Assembly: GCA_016839705.1 (NCBI GenBank)
Contig: JAEOTR010000060.1
Location: 32,001-96,000 of the forward strand
Origin: Promethearchaeota archaeon
GTDB lineage: Archaea; Asgardarchaeota; Lokiarchaeia; Sigyniarchaeales; SOKP01
DNA: 64,000 nucleotides
Direction: 5' to 3'
Below, one piece after another: positions 25,284 to 34,188 of this stretch. The translations under genes and the position numbers were made by a program. Positions within the stretch are counted from its first letter, which is position 1. The number at the start of each line of letters is the position of its first letter. The notes below the pieces were generated by a model, which saw only the letters and a list, made by a program, of their open reading frames with translations, did no database searches and was not told where the DNA came from.

Positions 25284-26240
25284 ATGAAAAATTCTGCAGA
25301 ATTACAGAAGATTTTATTTACAGGTTTAGAAGATGGAGGAAAAACCTCAATTTTATTACTATTAGATAAAAAATTCAGTTTACTGCCCGCAGTTAAACCT
25401 ACAATTAAAGCTAAGAGAACTTTCTATACTAACTCATTATTAGGAATCCAAATTACCCGTTGGGATTTAGGAGGTCAGAAAATATATAGGAAAATATATA
25501 TTAATGAGAAAAGCAAATACTTTACAGAGACACAAACTATTTTTTATATAATTGATATCCAATCCCAAAGTAAGTTTGATGAAGCTTTAACTTATCTCAA
25601 AGATATCACTAACATTGTTTCAGAAACTCACATTGAAAATTTTCAACTTCTAATATTACTCCATAAATTTGATCCCGATATAAGAGATAACAGTACCATT
25701 ATTGAGAATCAAAGATTTCTAGAGTCGCAAATCACTAAAATTATTGGAAATCTAAAACATTCGATTTATAAAACTTCAATTTATGATGTAGCAACATTAT
25801 TAAGAGCTTTTTCCGATGGAGTTTTTTATGCCACCCCTAAGTCTAAAATGCTTCAGGGACTTTTAAAGGATTACATGGGAAAAACATTCAATAGTGCCAC
25901 ACTCTTATTAGATCAGAACTGTTTCATTATAGCAAGCAGGTCTACAAATGAAGATTACCAAAGAATTTGTGAAGAGATTGCCCCAAGACTAACTCGTGCT
26001 CTTGAGAAGCTTGAAGAATGGGCAATAAATACTGTTGATATAGTTACAACTATCGAATTTCCAGAAAAACACTCAGATTTCCAAAAAGAAGGCATTATTT
26101 TTCTTAGGAAATTAGATATTACCAACACAAGACTCTATCTTATTGCTCTATGTTTAAATAAAAATGTTAAGCTCAAGTCTTATGAATATCTACCAATATT
26201 AGCGGATAATTTAAAGAATTTATTAGAAAGTTTTAAGTAA
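25284..26240 (+). CDS. Rag/Arf-like small GTPase with C-terminal roadblock domain
   Basis: GLEDGGKTS, PT, WDLGGQ, HKFD, TSIY; C-terminal TLLLDQNCFIIAS roadblock-like region. Confidence 0.85.
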   Translation: MKNSAELQKILFTGLEDGGKTSILLLLDKKFSLLPAVKPTIKAKRTFYTNSLLGIQITRWDLGGQKIYRKIYINEKSKYFTETQTIFYIIDIQSQSKFDEALTYLKDITNIVSETHIENFQLLILLHKFDPDIRDNSTIIENQRFLESQITKIIGNLKHSIYKTSIYDVATLLRAFSDGVFYATPKSKMLQGLLKDYMGKTFNSATLLLDQNCFIIASRSTNEDYQRICEEIAPRLTRALEKLEEWAINTVDIVTTIEFPEKHSDFQKEGIIFLRKLDITNTRLYLIALCLNKNVKLKSYEYLPILADNLKNLLESFK

Positions 26241-26358: not shown

Positions 26359-27552
26359 ATGACTTTTAAACTCGATATTAATAATCATTTTGTAGGACCT
26401 AAGGCAATTTTTGACCCAAATTTCATACCTCCTCGAATCCTTTTTAGAAGGAGAGAAGTAAAATCCTTATCCTCTATTTTAACTGATTCCCTTTCTGATG
26501 AATTTTGCCTTAATATTCTCTATCAAGGGATTAATGGTATAGGGAAAAAAGTAATAATAAATAAAGTTATAGATGATCTTTCAAGAAAAAATAACGGATT
26601 CAATAACATTCATAAAGTACATATTGATTGTAAAGAAAAAGATTTTGAGGAATTGACATTTTCGGTGTTAAACGACTTAATTAAGATTTCTCAGCTCAAT
26701 ATTAATTTTGAATCTCTCTTAAACTCAAATCTGTCTCATTTATGGAACGTTTTTAATCTAATTTGTAAAAAGACTGATTGTAACCTATTCTTTATTTTTA
26801 CTAATGTCGAACATTTAAAACCAGTTATATTTAAAAAATTTCTCCATCTCGGTAAGGAAAATAATATCACCTCTATCTACACTATAAACAAAATATTTCG
26901 ACCGACAACAATCGATATACTATCTGAATTTGATTTAAAAAAAAAGTTGAGTTATTTTTCCTACAAGGAACTATTTTCTATCTTAAAACAAAGGATGTTA
27001 CAAACATTTTCACATGAGGTGGATCAAGAACTAATTAAATACATAACAGATTTAGTTTGTGAACAATATGTTCCAGTTCCAGGAAAAGGAATCGAAATAT
27101 TTAGAGATCTCTATCCTCTATTAAAAGATAACCAAAGTATGAGGAATTTTAAATTAATAGAACTTTGCCAGAATCATTTTGATCAAATGCAAATTAATGA
27201 TGAATTTTCTATGTTAGATTATATTTCTGAAGAGGATTTGTTACATTTATTGTTTTTAGACAATCTATCGAATTATTTTTTAAGCAGTATGAATTACTAC
27301 ATCAAATTAAATGAACTCAAGGAGATTTATAATATTTCTTGTGAAACTTTAGAATATAAAAAAAATATAATTGAATTTCAGAATATAATTAAAGAGCTGT
27401 TAAATATTGGAATAGTAAGACCTTCGAAGAATTCTCAAAGAGAAAATAGACCATATTTTTTTGACGATGCTGCAACTACAGATTCTTTCTTTATGGTAAT
27501 ATCTCCAAATCAGTTAAAAGCTATTATAGATACTTTATTTGAAAGATATTAA
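26359..27552 (+). CDS. divergent Orc1/Cdc6 paralog
   Basis: IFDPNFIPPRILFRRREV, LYQGINGIGKK, HIDC, FSYKELFSILKQR, C-terminal wHTH; Walker A/B degenerate. Confidence 0.8.
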   Translation: MTFKLDINNHFVGPKAIFDPNFIPPRILFRRREVKSLSSILTDSLSDEFCLNILYQGINGIGKKVIINKVIDDLSRKNNGFNNIHKVHIDCKEKDFEELTFSVLNDLIKISQLNINFESLLNSNLSHLWNVFNLICKKTDCNLFFIFTNVEHLKPVIFKKFLHLGKENNITSIYTINKIFRPTTIDILSEFDLKKKLSYFSYKELFSILKQRMLQTFSHEVDQELIKYITDLVCEQYVPVPGKGIEIFRDLYPLLKDNQSMRNFKLIELCQNHFDQMQINDEFSMLDYISEEDLLHLLFLDNLSNYFLSSMNYYIKLNELKEIYNISCETLEYKKNIIEFQNIIKELLNIGIVRPSKNSQRENRPYFFDDAATTDSFFMVISPNQLKAIIDTLFERY

Positions 27553-27751: not shown

Positions 27752-30700
27752 TTGACTTACATTAAAAAAATATCTATGACTGGTTTCAAATCATTTGGAG
27801 ACCGAACAGTAACGATAAAACTTTCAAGTGGGTTTACTTGCATAGTGGGGCCTAATGGGGCAGGGAAATCCAATATTATAGATGCCCTGTGCTTCGCCTT
27901 AGGAAGGTTAAGTAAAAAAACAATGAGAGCTAAAAGTCTTGAAGATTTAATTTTTGCTGGATCTCGTGGTAAAAATCCGTCTCAAAGAGCCTCAGTCACA
28001 ATGTATTTTGATAACTCTGATAATGTGTTTCCAGGGGGCACGGATACTTTTGAAATCACACGTACAATAAAAAGAGGAGGGGGTGGCGGTTATAAGATGA
28101 ATGGAGCAAAAACCACCCGTCAACAAATTCTGAACGCATTAGCCGCAGCAAATATTGATCCTGATGGTAGCAATCAATTTGTCTTACAAGGAAAGATTGT
28201 TGAACTTACACATATGGATACTGAAAACAGAAGATTATTCATTGAAGACCTTATAGGACTTCAAAAATACGATGAGATGAAAGATTCTACCTTAAAGGAA
28301 TTAGAAAAAGCAGAAAGAGATTTGGGACAATTTGAAGCAATTTTCAAAGAAGTATCCTCTCAACTTAAGAAAGTTGAAAAAGAGAAAAATGATGCATTGC
28401 TTTGGAAGGAGTTTGATGAACAAATAAACTTTTTAAATTCTCAATTGATTGCGCTAAAGATTTCAAAACTGAGAGAAGAAGAGGATGAATTAGAAAAGAA
28501 AATTGAATCTACTTTAAAAATCATTGAAGAATTAAAGGAAAAAATTAATAGGCAAGAGGATGTACTTACACAAGAATCACTTGTTATGGATAATATTCAA
28601 AAAGCAATAAGCGAGAAGGAAAAAGAAAGAGAAGAAATAAATGAGGTTATTACTCAATTAAAAACAAAAATTTCCTCTAACAACACAACCACAAATTACG
28701 CCAAAAAGTCAATAGAAAAACTGAACACTGAAATAGAGTCCCTATCAAGTTTACAGATGAAGCTTGAAGAAGGCCAAACTATTAATACCTTAATTGAAGG
28801 GGTCGTAAATGAAATTAGTGAATCCGAAAATAAAATCGAAGAAGCTAAAAAAGAAATAGAAAAAAGACAACAAACCCAATCAGAATTAGATATTAAAATT
28901 AAAGACAATGAAGAAGGAAAATCATCATTTAATAGTGAAATCTCTAAAATACAACAGAAGATTTCATCAAATAATGCTCAAATTAAAGTTCTTAAAGATA
29001 ATATTAAGAAAAATGAAGATAAGAAGATTAAGTTAGAAACAGAATTGAATAAGCTAAAAAAAGATGCTGAGAGTATAGATGAAGCCATTGATGATGCAAA
29101 AAAGGTAGAAAATGCAATAAGATCACAGATAGATAATTTAAAGACTCAAGTCGTTGAGGAAAATCAAAAGCAAAAAGATCTGGAAAATAAAATAAATAGT
29201 TTTCAAGAAAGTAAAAACAATTTAAATACAAAGTTAACAAATTTACAATCTAATTTATCTTCTCTTACTACAGAGATAAGTATGAATAATGGGAGTATTC
29301 AAGATTTAAATAATAAAAAGATAGAAACTGAAACAAAGATCCAGGAATTGAGCGATGGTAAGGATACAGAAATAGTAGTAAAAGGTTTATTAACTGAAAA
29401 TGAAAAAATCAATAAGGAAATAAAAGAATTAAAGGGAAAATTAAAAGAAGAAAACTCAACCTATAAAAAAAATGAACAAGACCTAGAATTACTAAAAGTG
29501 AAAAAAGATTCATTCGGATCTGAAATTAATGATAATAGAGGAAAAATTGATACTAGAAACACAGAATTAAAAATTTATACAAAAGAATTAACTACACTTG
29601 AACGGGAAAAAAATAGCTTAGAATTACAAGTAAACACTTTAAACAATAATATTTCAAAAATAGGAGACGAAATAGAAAAATTTAGCGTGAAAAAAGATAA
29701 CATTCAAGGTCGTTTAGAAGACCTTACAAAAGAGAAAGATAATGTATTAAAGAAAATTGAATCTTCCGAAATGGAATATGAGAAGAGCACTAGAGATATT
29801 ACCGGAATTCTACAGATATTAAACATGCTTACTCAAAACATTAATATCTCTGTTGAATCAATAAAAGGCAATATACAACAATCAAACGCAGAGGCAATCG
29901 AGACCTCTGCTGAAGACTTTAAGAAATATGTTCTTGATGTTGTAGATATAATGAAAACTGTTGAAGAAATTGGCAGTGATACAGAACTAGCAACTGAAAT
30001 GTCATTAATGCTTAAATCCATTATGAAAACTCTTAAGTTATTTACTGATAATGCAGATGATACAATTGAACAGTTGATAGAGAAGGTTAAAGAATCAGCG
30101 GACATCGAAATTCAATCCTCAACATTAACATTTGATAATTTCGTTCAAGATTTAATGGAAATCCTTGAAAATGTCTATCTTTCTTTAAGAAAATTAACAA
30201 TGTCGAAGAGTCAAGAATTATATAAACAATTGGAGGAGATATCTGAAAATATAAACTCCCAAACTGATGATTTTAATAATATCGAAAAGAAATTAACAGA
30301 AAATAATATTCAGAACAAGCATGATACTGAAAATGTCTCGTCATTTAATCGCAGACTTGATGAAATTAATAAAAGGAATCAAGAATTAAACGAGAGAATG
30401 AAAAAATCAAATCAAGAAATAAATGAAAGAAATGGAATCATTAATGAGAGGCAAAAGGAGTCAGCAAATATTGACCAAGAAATACAACAATTAGAGGGAG
30501 TTAAAGAGACTTATTGGGAAAATATTTCAAAAATTCAAGATAATATCGAGAAAAAACAAATAGATTTAGAAAATTTGAGAAATAAAATACAAGAATTGCA
30601 TGGAATCCAAAATTTGTTTGAAAATATAGTGGAAATAGAGGAAAATATTCAAAAATTAAATAGCATAATTGATGAAAAGAAAAATTTAATTATTAATTCA

Positions 30701-32206
30701 CAAGAAGGTATAGAAAAGAATCAGGAAGAACAAAATTCTTTACAAAAAGAAATTGATGCTCTCGTTTTACAAAAAGAAAATTTTTGGGAAATAACAAGCA
30801 ATATACAAAAACAGATAGAAGATAAAAATAAAGAACTAGAAGAAAATATGGATCGATTGAGAGCACTTGAAAATGTTATGAGGATCATTAATACAATTGA
30901 AGATATAAAAAATGAAAATAATGAGGCAAAGGATAATATTGAAGCTTGTTTAAGCCAAACAAATGGGTTCAATTCACAAGTAGATGAGATTCAAATCAAA
31001 GTAGATCAAGCCCAAAAAATAATAGATTCATTCAGAAGTGATAAAACTAAAGAATTAGAATCACAAAAAACAGCCCAAAAAGAATTAAATAAATTTAATA
31101 AAGATTTACAAAAACAACAAAAAAAATTAAATGAGTTAAATAAGAATAAAGAAAGAGAGCAAAAAATTGATGAATTGAACCAAGAAATAAAAGATACTCA
31201 AAAGCAAATTGAATCGGTATTAAAAGAATTGGAAACATTTAAAGGTGATTTAGACTCAGAAAATGAGAAAAAAGATGCTAAACAAGAGGAAATTGATAAA
31301 CTAGCTAAAGAAAAGGATGAGTCTTGGAAGAAACAGAAGCAACACCAAAAAATGATTACGGACTTAAAGTCAGATCTCTCAATGGAGAATTCAAAGAAGA
31401 ATAACTTTGAATCTAAAAAAATTATCTGTGCTGATCAAATAGAAACTTTATTCCAAAGGTCTAAGGATTATGGCTCTTTACCACCAGTTACAGAAACTCT
31501 TTCAGAAAGCGATTTACAATCTGATATTGTAGAAGCTGCAAATAAGAAAAAAGTCCTTGAACCTGTTAACTTAAAAGCAATCGAACAGTATGATACTGTA
31601 AAAGAAAGATTTGATGAAATTGATATGCGTAGACAAACAATTCAGAGAGAAAGAAAATCGATTTTAGACGCTATAGATAAAATCGAGTTGGAAAAAACAC
31701 GTACATTTATGAAAGCTTATCATGAAATTAATCGTGAATTTTCGCATGTATTCCAGAAATTATCTCCCGGGGGTTCAGCAAAAATGATATTAGATCGTCC
31801 GGATAAACCATTTGAAGGGGGAATTAGTATAGAAGCGAGACCAAGAGGAAAAAAAATAAGTTCATTAGAAATTTTAAGTGGCGGTGAGAAAACACTCGTG
31901 GCGCTCTCGTTTATCTTTGCCGTCCAGGAGTTCTATCCCGCGCCTTTTTACGTTTTAGATGAGATCGATGCAGCCCTTGATGGTCCTAATGTACATCGAA
32001 CCTCTGAGGTTATTAGAGAATTTTCTCAACAAGCACAATTTTTAGTAATCAGCCACCGTGAAGAAAATATTGTAAATTCAGACAGAATTTATGGCGTATC
32101 CATGCAACAGTCTGGTGTAACCGATATTTTTAGCGTTGATTTAGAAGAAGAGGCTAAAAGGCTTTTAGAACTTGAAGATATCGAACCAACAATTACAGAA
32201 AATTAA
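27752..32206 (+). CDS. smc: SMC protein, elongated, canonical hinge not recognisable
   Basis: GFKSF, GPNGAGKSN, QG Q-loop, PVNLKA, LSGGEK, LDEIDAALD, ISH; followed by scpA and scpB. Confidence 0.95.
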   Translation: MTYIKKISMTGFKSFGDRTVTIKLSSGFTCIVGPNGAGKSNIIDALCFALGRLSKKTMRAKSLEDLIFAGSRGKNPSQRASVTMYFDNSDNVFPGGTDTFEITRTIKRGGGGGYKMNGAKTTRQQILNALAAANIDPDGSNQFVLQGKIVELTHMDTENRRLFIEDLIGLQKYDEMKDSTLKELEKAERDLGQFEAIFKEVSSQLKKVEKEKNDALLWKEFDEQINFLNSQLIALKISKLREEEDELEKKIESTLKIIEELKEKINRQEDVLTQESLVMDNIQKAISEKEKEREEINEVITQLKTKISSNNTTTNYAKKSIEKLNTEIESLSSLQMKLEEGQTINTLIEGVVNEISESENKIEEAKKEIEKRQQTQSELDIKIKDNEEGKSSFNSEISKIQQKISSNNAQIKVLKDNIKKNEDKKIKLETELNKLKKDAESIDEAIDDAKKVENAIRSQIDNLKTQVVEENQKQKDLENKINSFQESKNNLNTKLTNLQSNLSSLTTEISMNNGSIQDLNNKKIETETKIQELSDGKDTEIVVKGLLTENEKINKEIKELKGKLKEENSTYKKNEQDLELLKVKKDSFGSEINDNRGKIDTRNTELKIYTKELTTLEREKNSLELQVNTLNNNISKIGDEIEKFSVKKDNIQGRLEDLTKEKDNVLKKIESSEMEYEKSTRDITGILQILNMLTQNINISVESIKGNIQQSNAEAIETSAEDFKKYVLDVVDIMKTVEEIGSDTELATEMSLMLKSIMKTLKLFTDNADDTIEQLIEKVKESADIEIQSSTLTFDNFVQDLMEILENVYLSLRKLTMSKSQELYKQLEEISENINSQTDDFNNIEKKLTENNIQNKHDTENVSSFNRRLDEINKRNQELNERMKKSNQEINERNGIINERQKESANIDQEIQQLEGVKETYWENISKIQDNIEKKQIDLENLRNKIQELHGIQNLFENIVEIEENIQKLNSIIDEKKNLIINSQEGIEKNQEEQNSLQKEIDALVLQKENFWEITSNIQKQIEDKNKELEENMDRLRALENVMRIINTIEDIKNENNEAKDNIEACLSQTNGFNSQVDEIQIKVDQAQKIIDSFRSDKTKELESQKTAQKELNKFNKDLQKQQKKLNELNKNKEREQKIDELNQEIKDTQKQIESVLKELETFKGDLDSENEKKDAKQEEIDKLAKEKDESWKKQKQHQKMITDLKSDLSMENSKKNNFESKKIICADQIETLFQRSKDYGSLPPVTETLSESDLQSDIVEAANKKKVLEPVNLKAIEQYDTVKERFDEIDMRRQTIQRERKSILDAIDKIELEKTRTFMKAYHEINREFSHVFQKLSPGGSAKMILDRPDKPFEGGISIEARPRGKKISSLEILSGGEKTLVALSFIFAVQEFYPAPFYVLDEIDAALDGPNVHRTSEVIREFSQQAQFLVISHREENIVNSDRIYGVSMQQSGVTDIFSVDLEEEAKRLLELEDIEPTITEN

Positions 32207-32230: not shown

Positions 32231-33232
32231 ATGTCTGAAAAAAAGAATTTGGCCAAACTCTATAATTTTAATGATTGGACTGTAAAAGAATTAAGGGAAT
32301 TTGCTGCAAAAAACAATATCAAAATTCCATCAAAGTCAAAAAAACAGGATATCATTATTTTACTTCAGAAAGTTGTATCCCATGAGGAATTCATAGATAG
32401 AACTCAAGAAGTTGAAGAGCTTGAAGAAGAATTAATTGCAGGTTTTGAAGATGATGAAGATTTTGCTTTATTGAGAAAAGAAAAAATGGAATTGAAATTT
32501 TGGCAAAAACCACCCTTTTCAAGTCTATTAGATCCGGAATTGGCTAAAGAGTCTGAAATTGCGTTTTATGACTTAGCAAGTCTAGTAGACGAATTTTTTG
32601 GCAAAATGCTTCATGAAGATTTAATAAATTATAAGATCTCCGGAATCGCACTTAAAACTTCAGCCTCATTGCACCATTATAAAATATCGAGTATAATACG
32701 CGAAGAAGAACAAATTCAAATGAAAGAAGAGCTTGAAAAATTTCGACAGAGACATTCAAGGTCAATTCCAAAAGCTCTACCCCAACCTATTCAACCCAAA
32801 ATGCAAATTGCTACAAAAGATGAATTATTTGACGCAATGAGATCTGCAATAATCGAAACTATGCAAAATAAGGAGAAATTAAAAAGAAGAAGAATACGAC
32901 GAGAAGAATTGAAACAACAAAAAATACAAATGAAATCCAAAGCCCAATTACCAAAAGAGCTTTTAAGACATATTAGTGGCAAAGAACAAACAGTACAGGA
33001 GTTACATGATTCCTGGTATAATCGAATAAAGGGTACCATCAACTTAAACAATAAGGAAACTAGCTTTTTTGACTTAACAAGCATTATAAAAGGTGAAGAA
33101 GAGAGTAGTGTTGGGCGGAAATTTTCCCTAGTAAGAATGTTTTTAGCTTTAATGTTTTTGTCTACAGGGAATAAACTAAATTTAACTCAAGATGAAGATT
33201 TCAAAGATATTTCTATAGATATTAAAAAATAA
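32231..33232 (+). CDS. scpA: kleisin ScpA with extra N-terminal Rho_N/HeH-like domain
   Basis: YDLASLVDEF..INYKISGIAL..SA N-helical domain; RMFLALMFL..G..L.Q.E.F.DI C-terminal wH; lies between smc and scpB. Confidence 0.85.
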   Translation: MSEKKNLAKLYNFNDWTVKELREFAAKNNIKIPSKSKKQDIIILLQKVVSHEEFIDRTQEVEELEEELIAGFEDDEDFALLRKEKMELKFWQKPPFSSLLDPELAKESEIAFYDLASLVDEFFGKMLHEDLINYKISGIALKTSASLHHYKISSIIREEEQIQMKEELEKFRQRHSRSIPKALPQPIQPKMQIATKDELFDAMRSAIIETMQNKEKLKRRRIRREELKQQKIQMKSKAQLPKELLRHISGKEQTVQELHDSWYNRIKGTINLNNKETSFFDLTSIIKGEEESSVGRKFSLVRMFLALMFLSTGNKLNLTQDEDFKDISIDIKK

Positions 33233-33252: not shown

Positions 33253-34188
33253 ATGAATGATTCTAATGAAAATTTAGAAAAGGATTCAACGGAAGAGTTA
33301 AAGGAAGAGAATAGTAAAAACCCCGATGCCCTACTCGACAAAGAGATTGGGTCAGATGATGTAATGGAAAAACAAGACGACAATGAGATCAATACAAACA
33401 TAACAAATATTGAAAACCCCCAAATAGAGAATTTAAATTCAATAAATGGAACAACAGAGGAAGCCCTTTCCACTCAAGAGATTGGGTCAGATGATGTAAT
33501 GGAAAAACAAGACGACTATGAGATCAATATAAACATAATAAATATTGAAAACCCTCAAATAGAGAATTTAAATTCAATGAATGGAACAACAGAGGAAACC
33601 CTTTCCACTCAAGAGATTGAAAAAGAATTAGTAGAAAAACAATTGAGAGATTTCCATAGAAATTTGATTGAAGCCTCATTATATGCAGCAGGTAGACCTT
33701 TAACAGTGGAAGAGATATCAAATAAATTAGAACTACCAAAAAAAGAAGTTGAAGAACTTACCAATGAGGTCGCATTTGAGTATCTTGAGCGTCCTACAGC
33801 ATTAATAATTGCTCAAATAGGAGACAGATTTCAGATGCAGATAAGACCAGAATATACGGAAAAAGTATCTAAATTTGCTAAAGGGGGGGCTATAGCAGAG
33901 AGATACTTGAGGACTTTAACAATTATTGCTTTAAAGCAACCAATTCTAAAATCAATGGTAATAAAATTAAGGGGAACTGGAGCTTATGAGCATGTTAAAT
34001 ATCTTGTAGATAACGGATTTATTGATACTGTGAAAAAAGGACGCTCTCAAGAATTAACTACTACAGATAAATATGCTGATATGTTTGGATTACCTAAAGA
34101 TAAAACTGAGTTGAAACGTGCTATGGTTACTCAATTAGGAATAAGTGATAACGGAGATCAGATACAGTCCAATGAGGGTGAAGATTAA
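33253..34188 (+). CDS. scpB: SMC-Scp complex subunit ScpB with acidic repeated N-terminus
   Basis: IEASLYAAGRPL, LRTLTIIALKQPI, RG..AY.HV, TTDK..D.FGL. Confidence 0.93.
   Translation: MNDSNENLEKDSTEELKEENSKNPDALLDKEIGSDDVMEKQDDNEINTNITNIENPQIENLNSINGTTEEALSTQEIGSDDVMEKQDDYEININIINIENPQIENLNSMNGTTEETLSTQEIEKELVEKQLRDFHRNLIEASLYAAGRPLTVEEISNKLELPKKEVEELTNEVAFEYLERPTALIIAQIGDRFQMQIRPEYTEKVSKFAKGGAIAERYLRTLTIIALKQPILKSMVIKLRGTGAYEHVKYLVDNGFIDTVKKGRSQELTTTDKYADMFGLPKDKTELKRAMVTQLGISDNGDQIQSNEGED
33341..33619 (+). repeat. 135-bp (45-aa) in-frame tandem duplication in scpB
   Basis: AAGAGATTG at 33341, 33476 and 33611; two near-identical EIGSDDVMEKQDD...LSTQ units. Confidence 0.95.

Follow-up and report, generated by a model that had tools for sequence, protein, structure and literature searches.

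The hinge counts as a defining element of all SMC-kleisin complexes, and it is a long-running question whether it serves as a DNA gate, as the DNA-binding foot of loop extrusion or as a mere clasp. The systems closest to the one described here are the Smc-ScpAB complexes of B. subtilis, Pyrococcus and canonical Asgard archaea. An engineered B. subtilis Smc that carries the Rad50 zinc hook in place of the hinge grows normally, so that a swap of this kind is tolerated and the fold of the hinge would seem irrelevant in this bacterium; the same study found a functional period of 91 aa in the B. subtilis Smc arms and natural Smc arm-length modes of 238, 341 and 515 aa (Burmann et al. 2017, PMC5344682). 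Rad50/SbcC and the ASRP proteins ClsN and Sph (PMC9389158) possess no globular hinge and use a CxxC zinc hook where the coiled coil turns back. RecN has neither hinge nor hook and dimerises via interlocking coiled-coil tips. For Asgard archaea, Van Hooff et al. cite an SMC-kleisin-kite operon of P. syntrophicum as an example related to condensin and cohesin; their supplements do not contain the word hinge (bioRxiv 2024.01.07.573240).

Here we describe an Smc from a Promethearchaeota archaeon that possesses a helical apex instead of a hinge. This apex is real, conserved and apparently undescribed, as no description of it was found in the literature searched, with most subscription papers lying outside that search. 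The gene is located in a window of 64,000 nucleotides, which is the whole stretch of DNA that was analysed, and its features are collected in Table 1. In its head motifs, head phylogeny, kleisin and kite gene order and arm period of about 90 aa the system resembles Smc-ScpAB, and it shares with it a long intramolecular antiparallel coiled coil, as supported by a model of aa 630-880 and by a paired 97/90-aa deletion in a relative. It differs from Smc-ScpAB in the absence of PF06470, in its acidic helical hairpin apex, in a length that exceeds the usual one by about 290 aa, and in an additional N-terminal HeH-like or Lys-rich segment of ScpA. With the engineered zinc-hook Smc it has in common that the arm periodicity is kept and, by inference, that dimerisation relies on a domain other than the hinge, but that protein is artificial and contains a known hook, whereas the module described here is natural, order-wide and undescribed. 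Like Rad50/SbcC and the ASRP proteins it is an SMC-superfamily ATPase in which the coiled coil reverses its direction without a globular hinge; unlike these it lacks CxxC and keeps scpA-scpB. The likeness to RecN consists in the lack of hinge and hook and in an inferred dimerisation through helical tips, but RecN is short, bacterial, kleisin-free and arranged tail-to-tail. The Smc5/6-related archaeal SMC is a different protein, and the source genome encodes its Smc5/6-like representative in a separate locus (contig C73) with a putative kleisin and kite of its own.

Table 1. Features of the hingeless smc operon; positions refer to the window, aa to the encoded protein.
Feature	Position	Strand	Evidence
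smc gene, 1484 aa, condensin-type heads, without hinge	27752..32206	+	ORF, HMM scores, head tree
ATPase head, N-terminal half (Walker A aa 33, Q-loop aa 143)	27752..28276	+	Pfam, motifs
Outgoing arm (aa 292-680), made of four ~97-98-aa modules, with a short helix break at the end of each of the first three	28625..29791	+	Lag 195, z 4.0; shorter relative
Apex unit 1 (aa 681-735), an amphipathic helix with aa 681-720 almost invariant	29792..29956	+	Repeat comparison, conservation
Hairpin turn (aa 741-745), variable, acidic, protein midpoint	29972..29986	+	Conservation, model
Apex unit 2 (aa 752-806), repeats unit 1 at 71-aa offset, antiparallel to unit 1 in model	30005..30169	+	Profile comparison, model
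Returning arm, four 90-aa modules (aa 833-1192)	30248..31327	+	Lags 90 and 180; shorter relative
ATPase head, C-terminal half (signature, Walker B, D- and H-loops)	31649..32146	+	HMM, motifs
scpA kleisin, orthologous to Asgard ScpA, with additional N-terminal HeH/Rho_N-like segment	32231..33232	+	Pfam, alignment
scpB kite, acidic N-terminal extension	33253..34188	+	PF04079, E 3.7e-32

A complete operon with intact ATPase heads

All head motifs of the Smc are kept, with the signature at aa 1375, Walker B and D-loop at aa 1402 and the H-loop at aa 1432 in addition to the N-terminal Walker A and Q-loop. The protein scores 600 bits against TIGR02168, above the cut-off of 567, and 602 bits against TIGR02169, below the cut-off of 729. 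The ASRP model gives 147 against a cut-off of 300, the Rad50 models 42-107 against 700-1087, and TIGR00634 (RecN) 27 bits against 408. ScpA matches PF02616 only weakly (E 0.0045), but it aligns well with ScpA from hinged Asgard operons. At its N-terminus (aa 13-47, 32267-32371) matches to Ish1, Rho_N and HeH fall slightly below the Pfam cut-offs, and elsewhere in the order this segment is replaced by a Lys-rich tail or a CxxC start. The genes scpA and scpB follow directly 3' of the hingeless smc in 44 of 53 loci.

Some observations on the surroundings of the gene can be added. Immediately 5' of smc lies a divergent orc1/cdc6-like gene (26359-27552), preceded by a Rag/Arf-like small GTPase gene (25284-26240). 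In the closed genome G270 the hingeless smc is broken into two frames 3' of the apex (L132:3393-7841), which may be a sequencing error or a true frameshift. RNA-library contigs from one study span an L. ossiferum-like operon; such contigs prove neither transcription nor its level.

Loss of hinge and hook

No Pfam match of the Smc to SMC_hinge (PF06470) was obtained at E<=10; canonical Asgard SMCs, used as control, gave E 1e-32 to 1e-38. A six-frame search of the whole genome with PF06470 returned a single match, which is the separate Smc5/6-like SMC on contig C73. This speaks against a hinge that is supplied in trans, and a tblastn search for remnants of a hinged paralog in the source genome (93% complete) found none. 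Neither CxxC nor GX6GX3GG is present in the Smc or in the central 600 aa of 103 full-length homologs. PF06470 is missing from all 120 listed homologs, of which the named ones belong largely to Promethearchaeota/Lokiarchaeia, and an all-helical centre that is nearly free of Gly and Pro is common to 170 homologs and three closed genomes.

As an alternative explanation, the missing hinge could be an assembly artefact, or the hinge could have diverged past recognition. Degenerate hinges that escape PF06470 do exist in another Asgard family (L111, P0248, P0270). However, those proteins still show hinge motifs, which the centre of the hingeless Smc does not; moreover, the homologs and the closed genomes share the helical centre, and the structural model contains no beta-strand. 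We consider this alternative all but excluded, and conclude that hinge and hook have been lost from this Smc.

An earlier note, made from the sequence alone, had claimed intact SMC heads in an smc-scpA-scpB operon and a midpoint without canonical hinge motifs or CxxC hook. Both claims held, the first by motifs, ORFs and HMM scores, the second by the Pfam, genome and homolog searches, and the two checks that had been preset as refuting, a PF06470 search and a hinge-fold prediction, gave no match and no alpha/beta fold. Sph and ClsN, named there as hinge-deviant precedents, are not close parallels, since they possess the zinc hook (PMC9389158).

The Smc5/6-like gene on contig C73 (L002:6562-12526) encodes a weak hinge and is followed by genes for a putative kleisin (216 aa) and kite (175 aa), while an AAA-like gene precedes it.

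An internally repeated apex, predicted as a helical hairpin

The apex comprises 135 residues (aa 681-815), in which a unit of 55 aa occurs twice, 71 aa apart. The two units are identical at 12 of 55 positions when aligned without gaps, and BLASTP of one against the other gives no match, but a profile comparison relates them with P about 1e-6. Among 331 window pairs within the Smc this pair ranks second, behind an arm repeat, and 71 is the top self-similarity lag of the whole protein (z=4.1). The repeat is thus genuine but old. An AlphaFold2 model of aa 630-880 shows a single helix up to aa 740, from which the chain reverses in a turn of five residues and runs back as a second helix, without any strands (pLDDT 83 overall, 93-95 in the arms and about 75 in the apex). 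According to this model the centre of the Smc is predicted to be a hairpin that prolongs the coiled coil and not a separate globular domain. As the two repeats run antiparallel, the tip is pseudo-two-fold symmetric. The earlier note had placed two similar helical units at 29780-30220 (aa 677-823) and had interpreted them as an internally duplicated helical domain; units and duplication held, and the domain is refined to the hairpin.

Conservation in this region is pronounced. The entropy of aa 681-720 is 0.27, compared with 1.2-1.9 for the arms on either side and 0.1-0.55 for the heads, and the fraction of conserved large hydrophobic positions is 0.36-0.39 in the apex versus 0.20-0.28 in the arm modules. 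In the roughly 60 residues on either side of the turn the hydrophobic positions exceed what a two-stranded coil needs. The apex is also acidic, with a net charge of -13.

Neither Pfam, PDB sequences nor the ESM Atlas yielded more than generic amphipathic-helix matches for the apex, and Foldseek and VIA structure searches returned generic hairpins only. The apex hence matches no known family, which is not proof of a new fold. The top Foldseek match and second VIA match of the apex model is the chemoreceptor (MCP) hairpin of PDB 2ch7, likewise a long helical hairpin, which in MCPs dimerises with the tips together as a four-helix bundle. This resemblance is one of shape only (rmsd 8.3, 6% identity, sequence E 4-8, MCP absent from the Pfam matches), and no homology is shown. 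Covariation by mutual information on an alignment of 189 sequences (Neff 38) was mostly noise, and a complex prediction for two apex copies scored 0.02 and allows no verdict.

Paired modules in the arms

Without the apex the arms measure roughly 500 aa, as estimated from the spans. The arms are modular and consist of paired 97/90-aa units. Relatives from the deepest-branching family are 1296-1299 aa long, lacking 97-98 aa in one arm and 90 aa (77+13) in the other, and this paired absence fixes the antiparallel register and places the apex at the centre. The natural variant that is shorter by one module makes the arm-length periodicity visible in the sequence.

Distribution and ancestry

In a survey of 251 Asgard genomes the apex was essentially confined to one order of Lokiarchaeia, where it occurs in 54 of 61 genomes (49/56 in the source family and 5/5 in a sister family). 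A third family of the order has it as well, and so do the closed genomes G255 and G252, which we take to be P. syntrophicum and L. ossiferum, respectively. The hingeless operon thus occurs in cultured Asgard archaea, and both cultured Lokiarchaeia species are covered. Among about 190 Asgard genomes outside the order only one has it; the contig concerned, 8.6 kb long, resembles the copy of the sister family and is probably misbinned. The SMCs of the remaining Asgard families are ordinary proteins of about 1190 aa, and those tested have a hinge.

In a tree of the heads the apex proteins form one clade (93/100) among hinged canonical SMCs, with the deeper order unresolved, and apex clade and canonical SMCs together are split from the Smc5/6-like rows with 100/100. 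The tree took in no Rad50, bacterial or eukaryotic rows and omitted 11 rows, mostly thaumarchaeal, in which the signature was missed by the pattern. The operon was most likely inherited, because its ScpA aligns with that of hinged operons and scpA-scpB adjoin so regularly. Head tree, kleisin alignment and synteny (44/53) also support the condensin part of the earlier claim, in that the lineage is of condensin type. Since the hingeless operon is the only adjoining condensin-type trio found in G255, the operon cited by Van Hooff et al. is probably the same locus; in work on eukaryogenesis it has apparently been taken as an example of a condensin/cohesin precursor, although it is a derived form.

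A hinged SMC paralog was found in 18 of 116 genomes of the order, in two of them as stand-alone hinge ORFs, but in none of the 45 genomes of the source genus (g1) and none of the 34 of genus g4. In both genera the hingeless Smc is the only condensin-type SMC found, and the same applies to most genomes of one family. The presence of such a paralog permits the interpretation that the hingeless Smc is neofunctionalised, for example for a structural or repair task, and that its condensin role has moved to the hinged paralog or to a Smc5/6-like complex. This is supported by the closed genomes G255, G252 and G207, which have three SMCs each, one of them strongly hinged. However, the ancestral scpA-scpB operon stays with the hingeless gene, the conservation of whose heads is very high, and the hinged paralog has only a divergent ScpB-like neighbour, no adjoining scpA, and is not found in g1 and g4. 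We think that this possibility is very unlikely.

The retention of the hinged paralog is patchy, and the divergent ScpB-like gene near it, again without adjoining scpA, was seen in six loci (L095, L097, L123, L124, L125, L130). A stand-alone ORF of about 245 aa in genus g66, and also in G261, is essentially an SMC hinge (L131:5024-5758) and is likely a remnant of this paralog.

A tandem-apex protein as lead to the pairing

An apex profile search of 1.84 billion proteins returned, beside SMCs, a non-SMC family of about 1000 aa (e.g. DSAG12_01461 and WKT22_04228; P0140-P0165; L128:3984-6746; L129:4688-8041; L088:5181-8255). Its members contain the apex twice (HHalign 99.6% and 97.6%), with the copies flanking a conserved Gly turn, followed towards the C-terminus by a further region without known family and a Lys-rich tail. 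The protein is present in P. syntrophicum and L. ossiferum and, altogether, in 6 of 9 genomes of the Promethearchaeum family, and in that family only. It was found in none of the 105 genomes of the source Smc's own family and therefore is not an obligatory partner of the apex. A 914-aa gene located 5' of smc in G207 and G087 was considered as a tandem-apex protein and ruled out.

The AlphaFold model of the tandem-apex protein (pLDDT 88, pTM 0.57) rests on an alignment of 16 sequences only. It aligns with the up-down four-helix bundle 2lff over aa 86-388 (rmsd 2.2, 109/115), with 4uos over aa 47-436 (rmsd 3.6, 187/188) and with cytochrome b562 over aa 91-387, and these alignments draw residues from both hairpin tips. 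From the alignment ranges we infer that in the model the two apices lie alongside each other, with both tips at one end. The Z-scores of 12-14 for helical bundles are near background, the covalent link forces a tips-together geometry and thereby biases the result, and the alignment is shallow. We consider the model the best, but indirect, lead to the pairing in the Smc; it is not proof.

It could also be envisaged that the apex does not self-associate but binds another protein, which might be a loader, an anchor to membrane or cytoskeleton, or the tandem-apex protein itself, and that only ATP-engaged heads and kleisin hold the dimer together. The conserved amphipathic surface indicates an interface without specifying the partner, and the non-SMC protein with the same domain in family f2 could pair with the apex. 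Yet the apex is highly conserved in the source family, where the tandem-apex protein is missing, and no further candidate partner gene travels with the operon, so that we regard this option as unlikely.

Proposed mechanism

The mechanism that we favour, although by a modest margin, starts from an Asgard Smc-ScpA(-ScpB) condensin that was inherited vertically and whose alpha/beta hinge would have been swapped for the pseudo-two-fold helical hairpin. Each Smc is predicted to fold back at aa 741-745, and two hairpins would lie next to each other, both tips pointing the same way, giving a four-helix bundle that runs straight into the arms, comparable to chemoreceptor tips. At the other end, ATP-engaged heads and ScpA would close the ring, which is inferred from the intact motifs and the operon, and the four paired 97/90-aa modules would hold the super-helical phase of about 91 aa that Smc arms require. 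Because the acidic apex is unlikely to bind DNA or to act as an opening gate, DNA would be handled at the head/kleisin side, where any loading and loop extrusion might be aided by the N-terminal HeH-like or Lys-rich extension of ScpA. Dimerisation, ring closure and loading are inferred, without any experiment on this Smc. It is likely that the apex serves as a homodimer interface, whatever its geometry; this rests on the conservation, the surplus hydrophobic positions and the tandem-apex model, and on the same grounds the different dimerisation module proposed in the earlier note stays an inference.

Some points speak against the mechanism. The archaeal ScpA-ScpB pairs tested to date do not bind each other (PMC7055376), which leaves the place of ScpB in the complex open, and a hinged paralog, where it coexists, could perform the condensin job. 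The pseudo-two-fold symmetry, furthermore, permits the opposite orientation equally well. In that case the apex would homodimerise tail-to-tail, with the tips at opposite ends in a RecN-like or ROP-like manner, resulting in a rod of great length, with one head at either end, that might bridge DNA, polymerise by head-head contacts or bend at breaks in the arms to reach the kleisin. The 71-aa repeat would allow a D2-like bundle in either orientation, RecN provides a precedent for such tips, and the regular breaks in the outgoing arm are possible elbows. Against this, the sole structural lead, the tandem-apex model, sets the tips together, a kleisin that bridges two heads is retained beside smc, and the paired gain or loss of modules suits aligned arms in which phase matters. 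The tail-to-tail rod is hence unlikely in our view, and we retain the parallel bundle.

A bolder reading would be that this is a natural, working Smc-kleisin-kite condensin that dimerises via an undescribed four-helix-bundle apex which cannot open. It occurs in both cultured Lokiarchaeia, and in most members of a large Asgard family no other condensin-type SMC was found beside it; for this reading as a whole we see the arguments as slightly in favour. If true, chromosome organisation in nature can do without the hinge, whether this acts as DNA-binding site or as entry gate. Beside the engineered chimera of B. subtilis, the hingeless Smc represents a natural experiment that is fixed order-wide, usually without a hinged condensin as back-up.

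Apparent further replacements of the hinge in archaea

Hinge replacement seems to be recurrent in archaea, which makes the present case less unique and the general point stronger; if true, the hinge was replaced several times independently. An SMC family of about 770 aa (P0204-P0240; L134:5001-7319) contains neither PF06470 nor CxxC, has a short helical apex and scpA-scpB directly 3', and is nested among hinged SMCs; one member is labelled Hodarchaeaceae, but the lineage is not established. Homology of its helical centre to the apex described here was considered and rejected, as the HHalign probability of 0.8% is no better than that of arm controls. Pacearchaeota-type SMCs of about 1000 aa (P0262, P0263, P0271, P0282, P0285; L136:5001-7982) combine canonical-type heads with a CxxC (CPLC, aa 480) in place of the hinge, and they are a possible natural counterpart of the zinc-hook chimera, with no scpA adjoining in the locus seen. 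In the SMCs with a degenerate hinge (L111:6378-9875, P0248, P0270) this domain is shortened, and scpA and two ScpB-like genes come after the SMC gene in L111.
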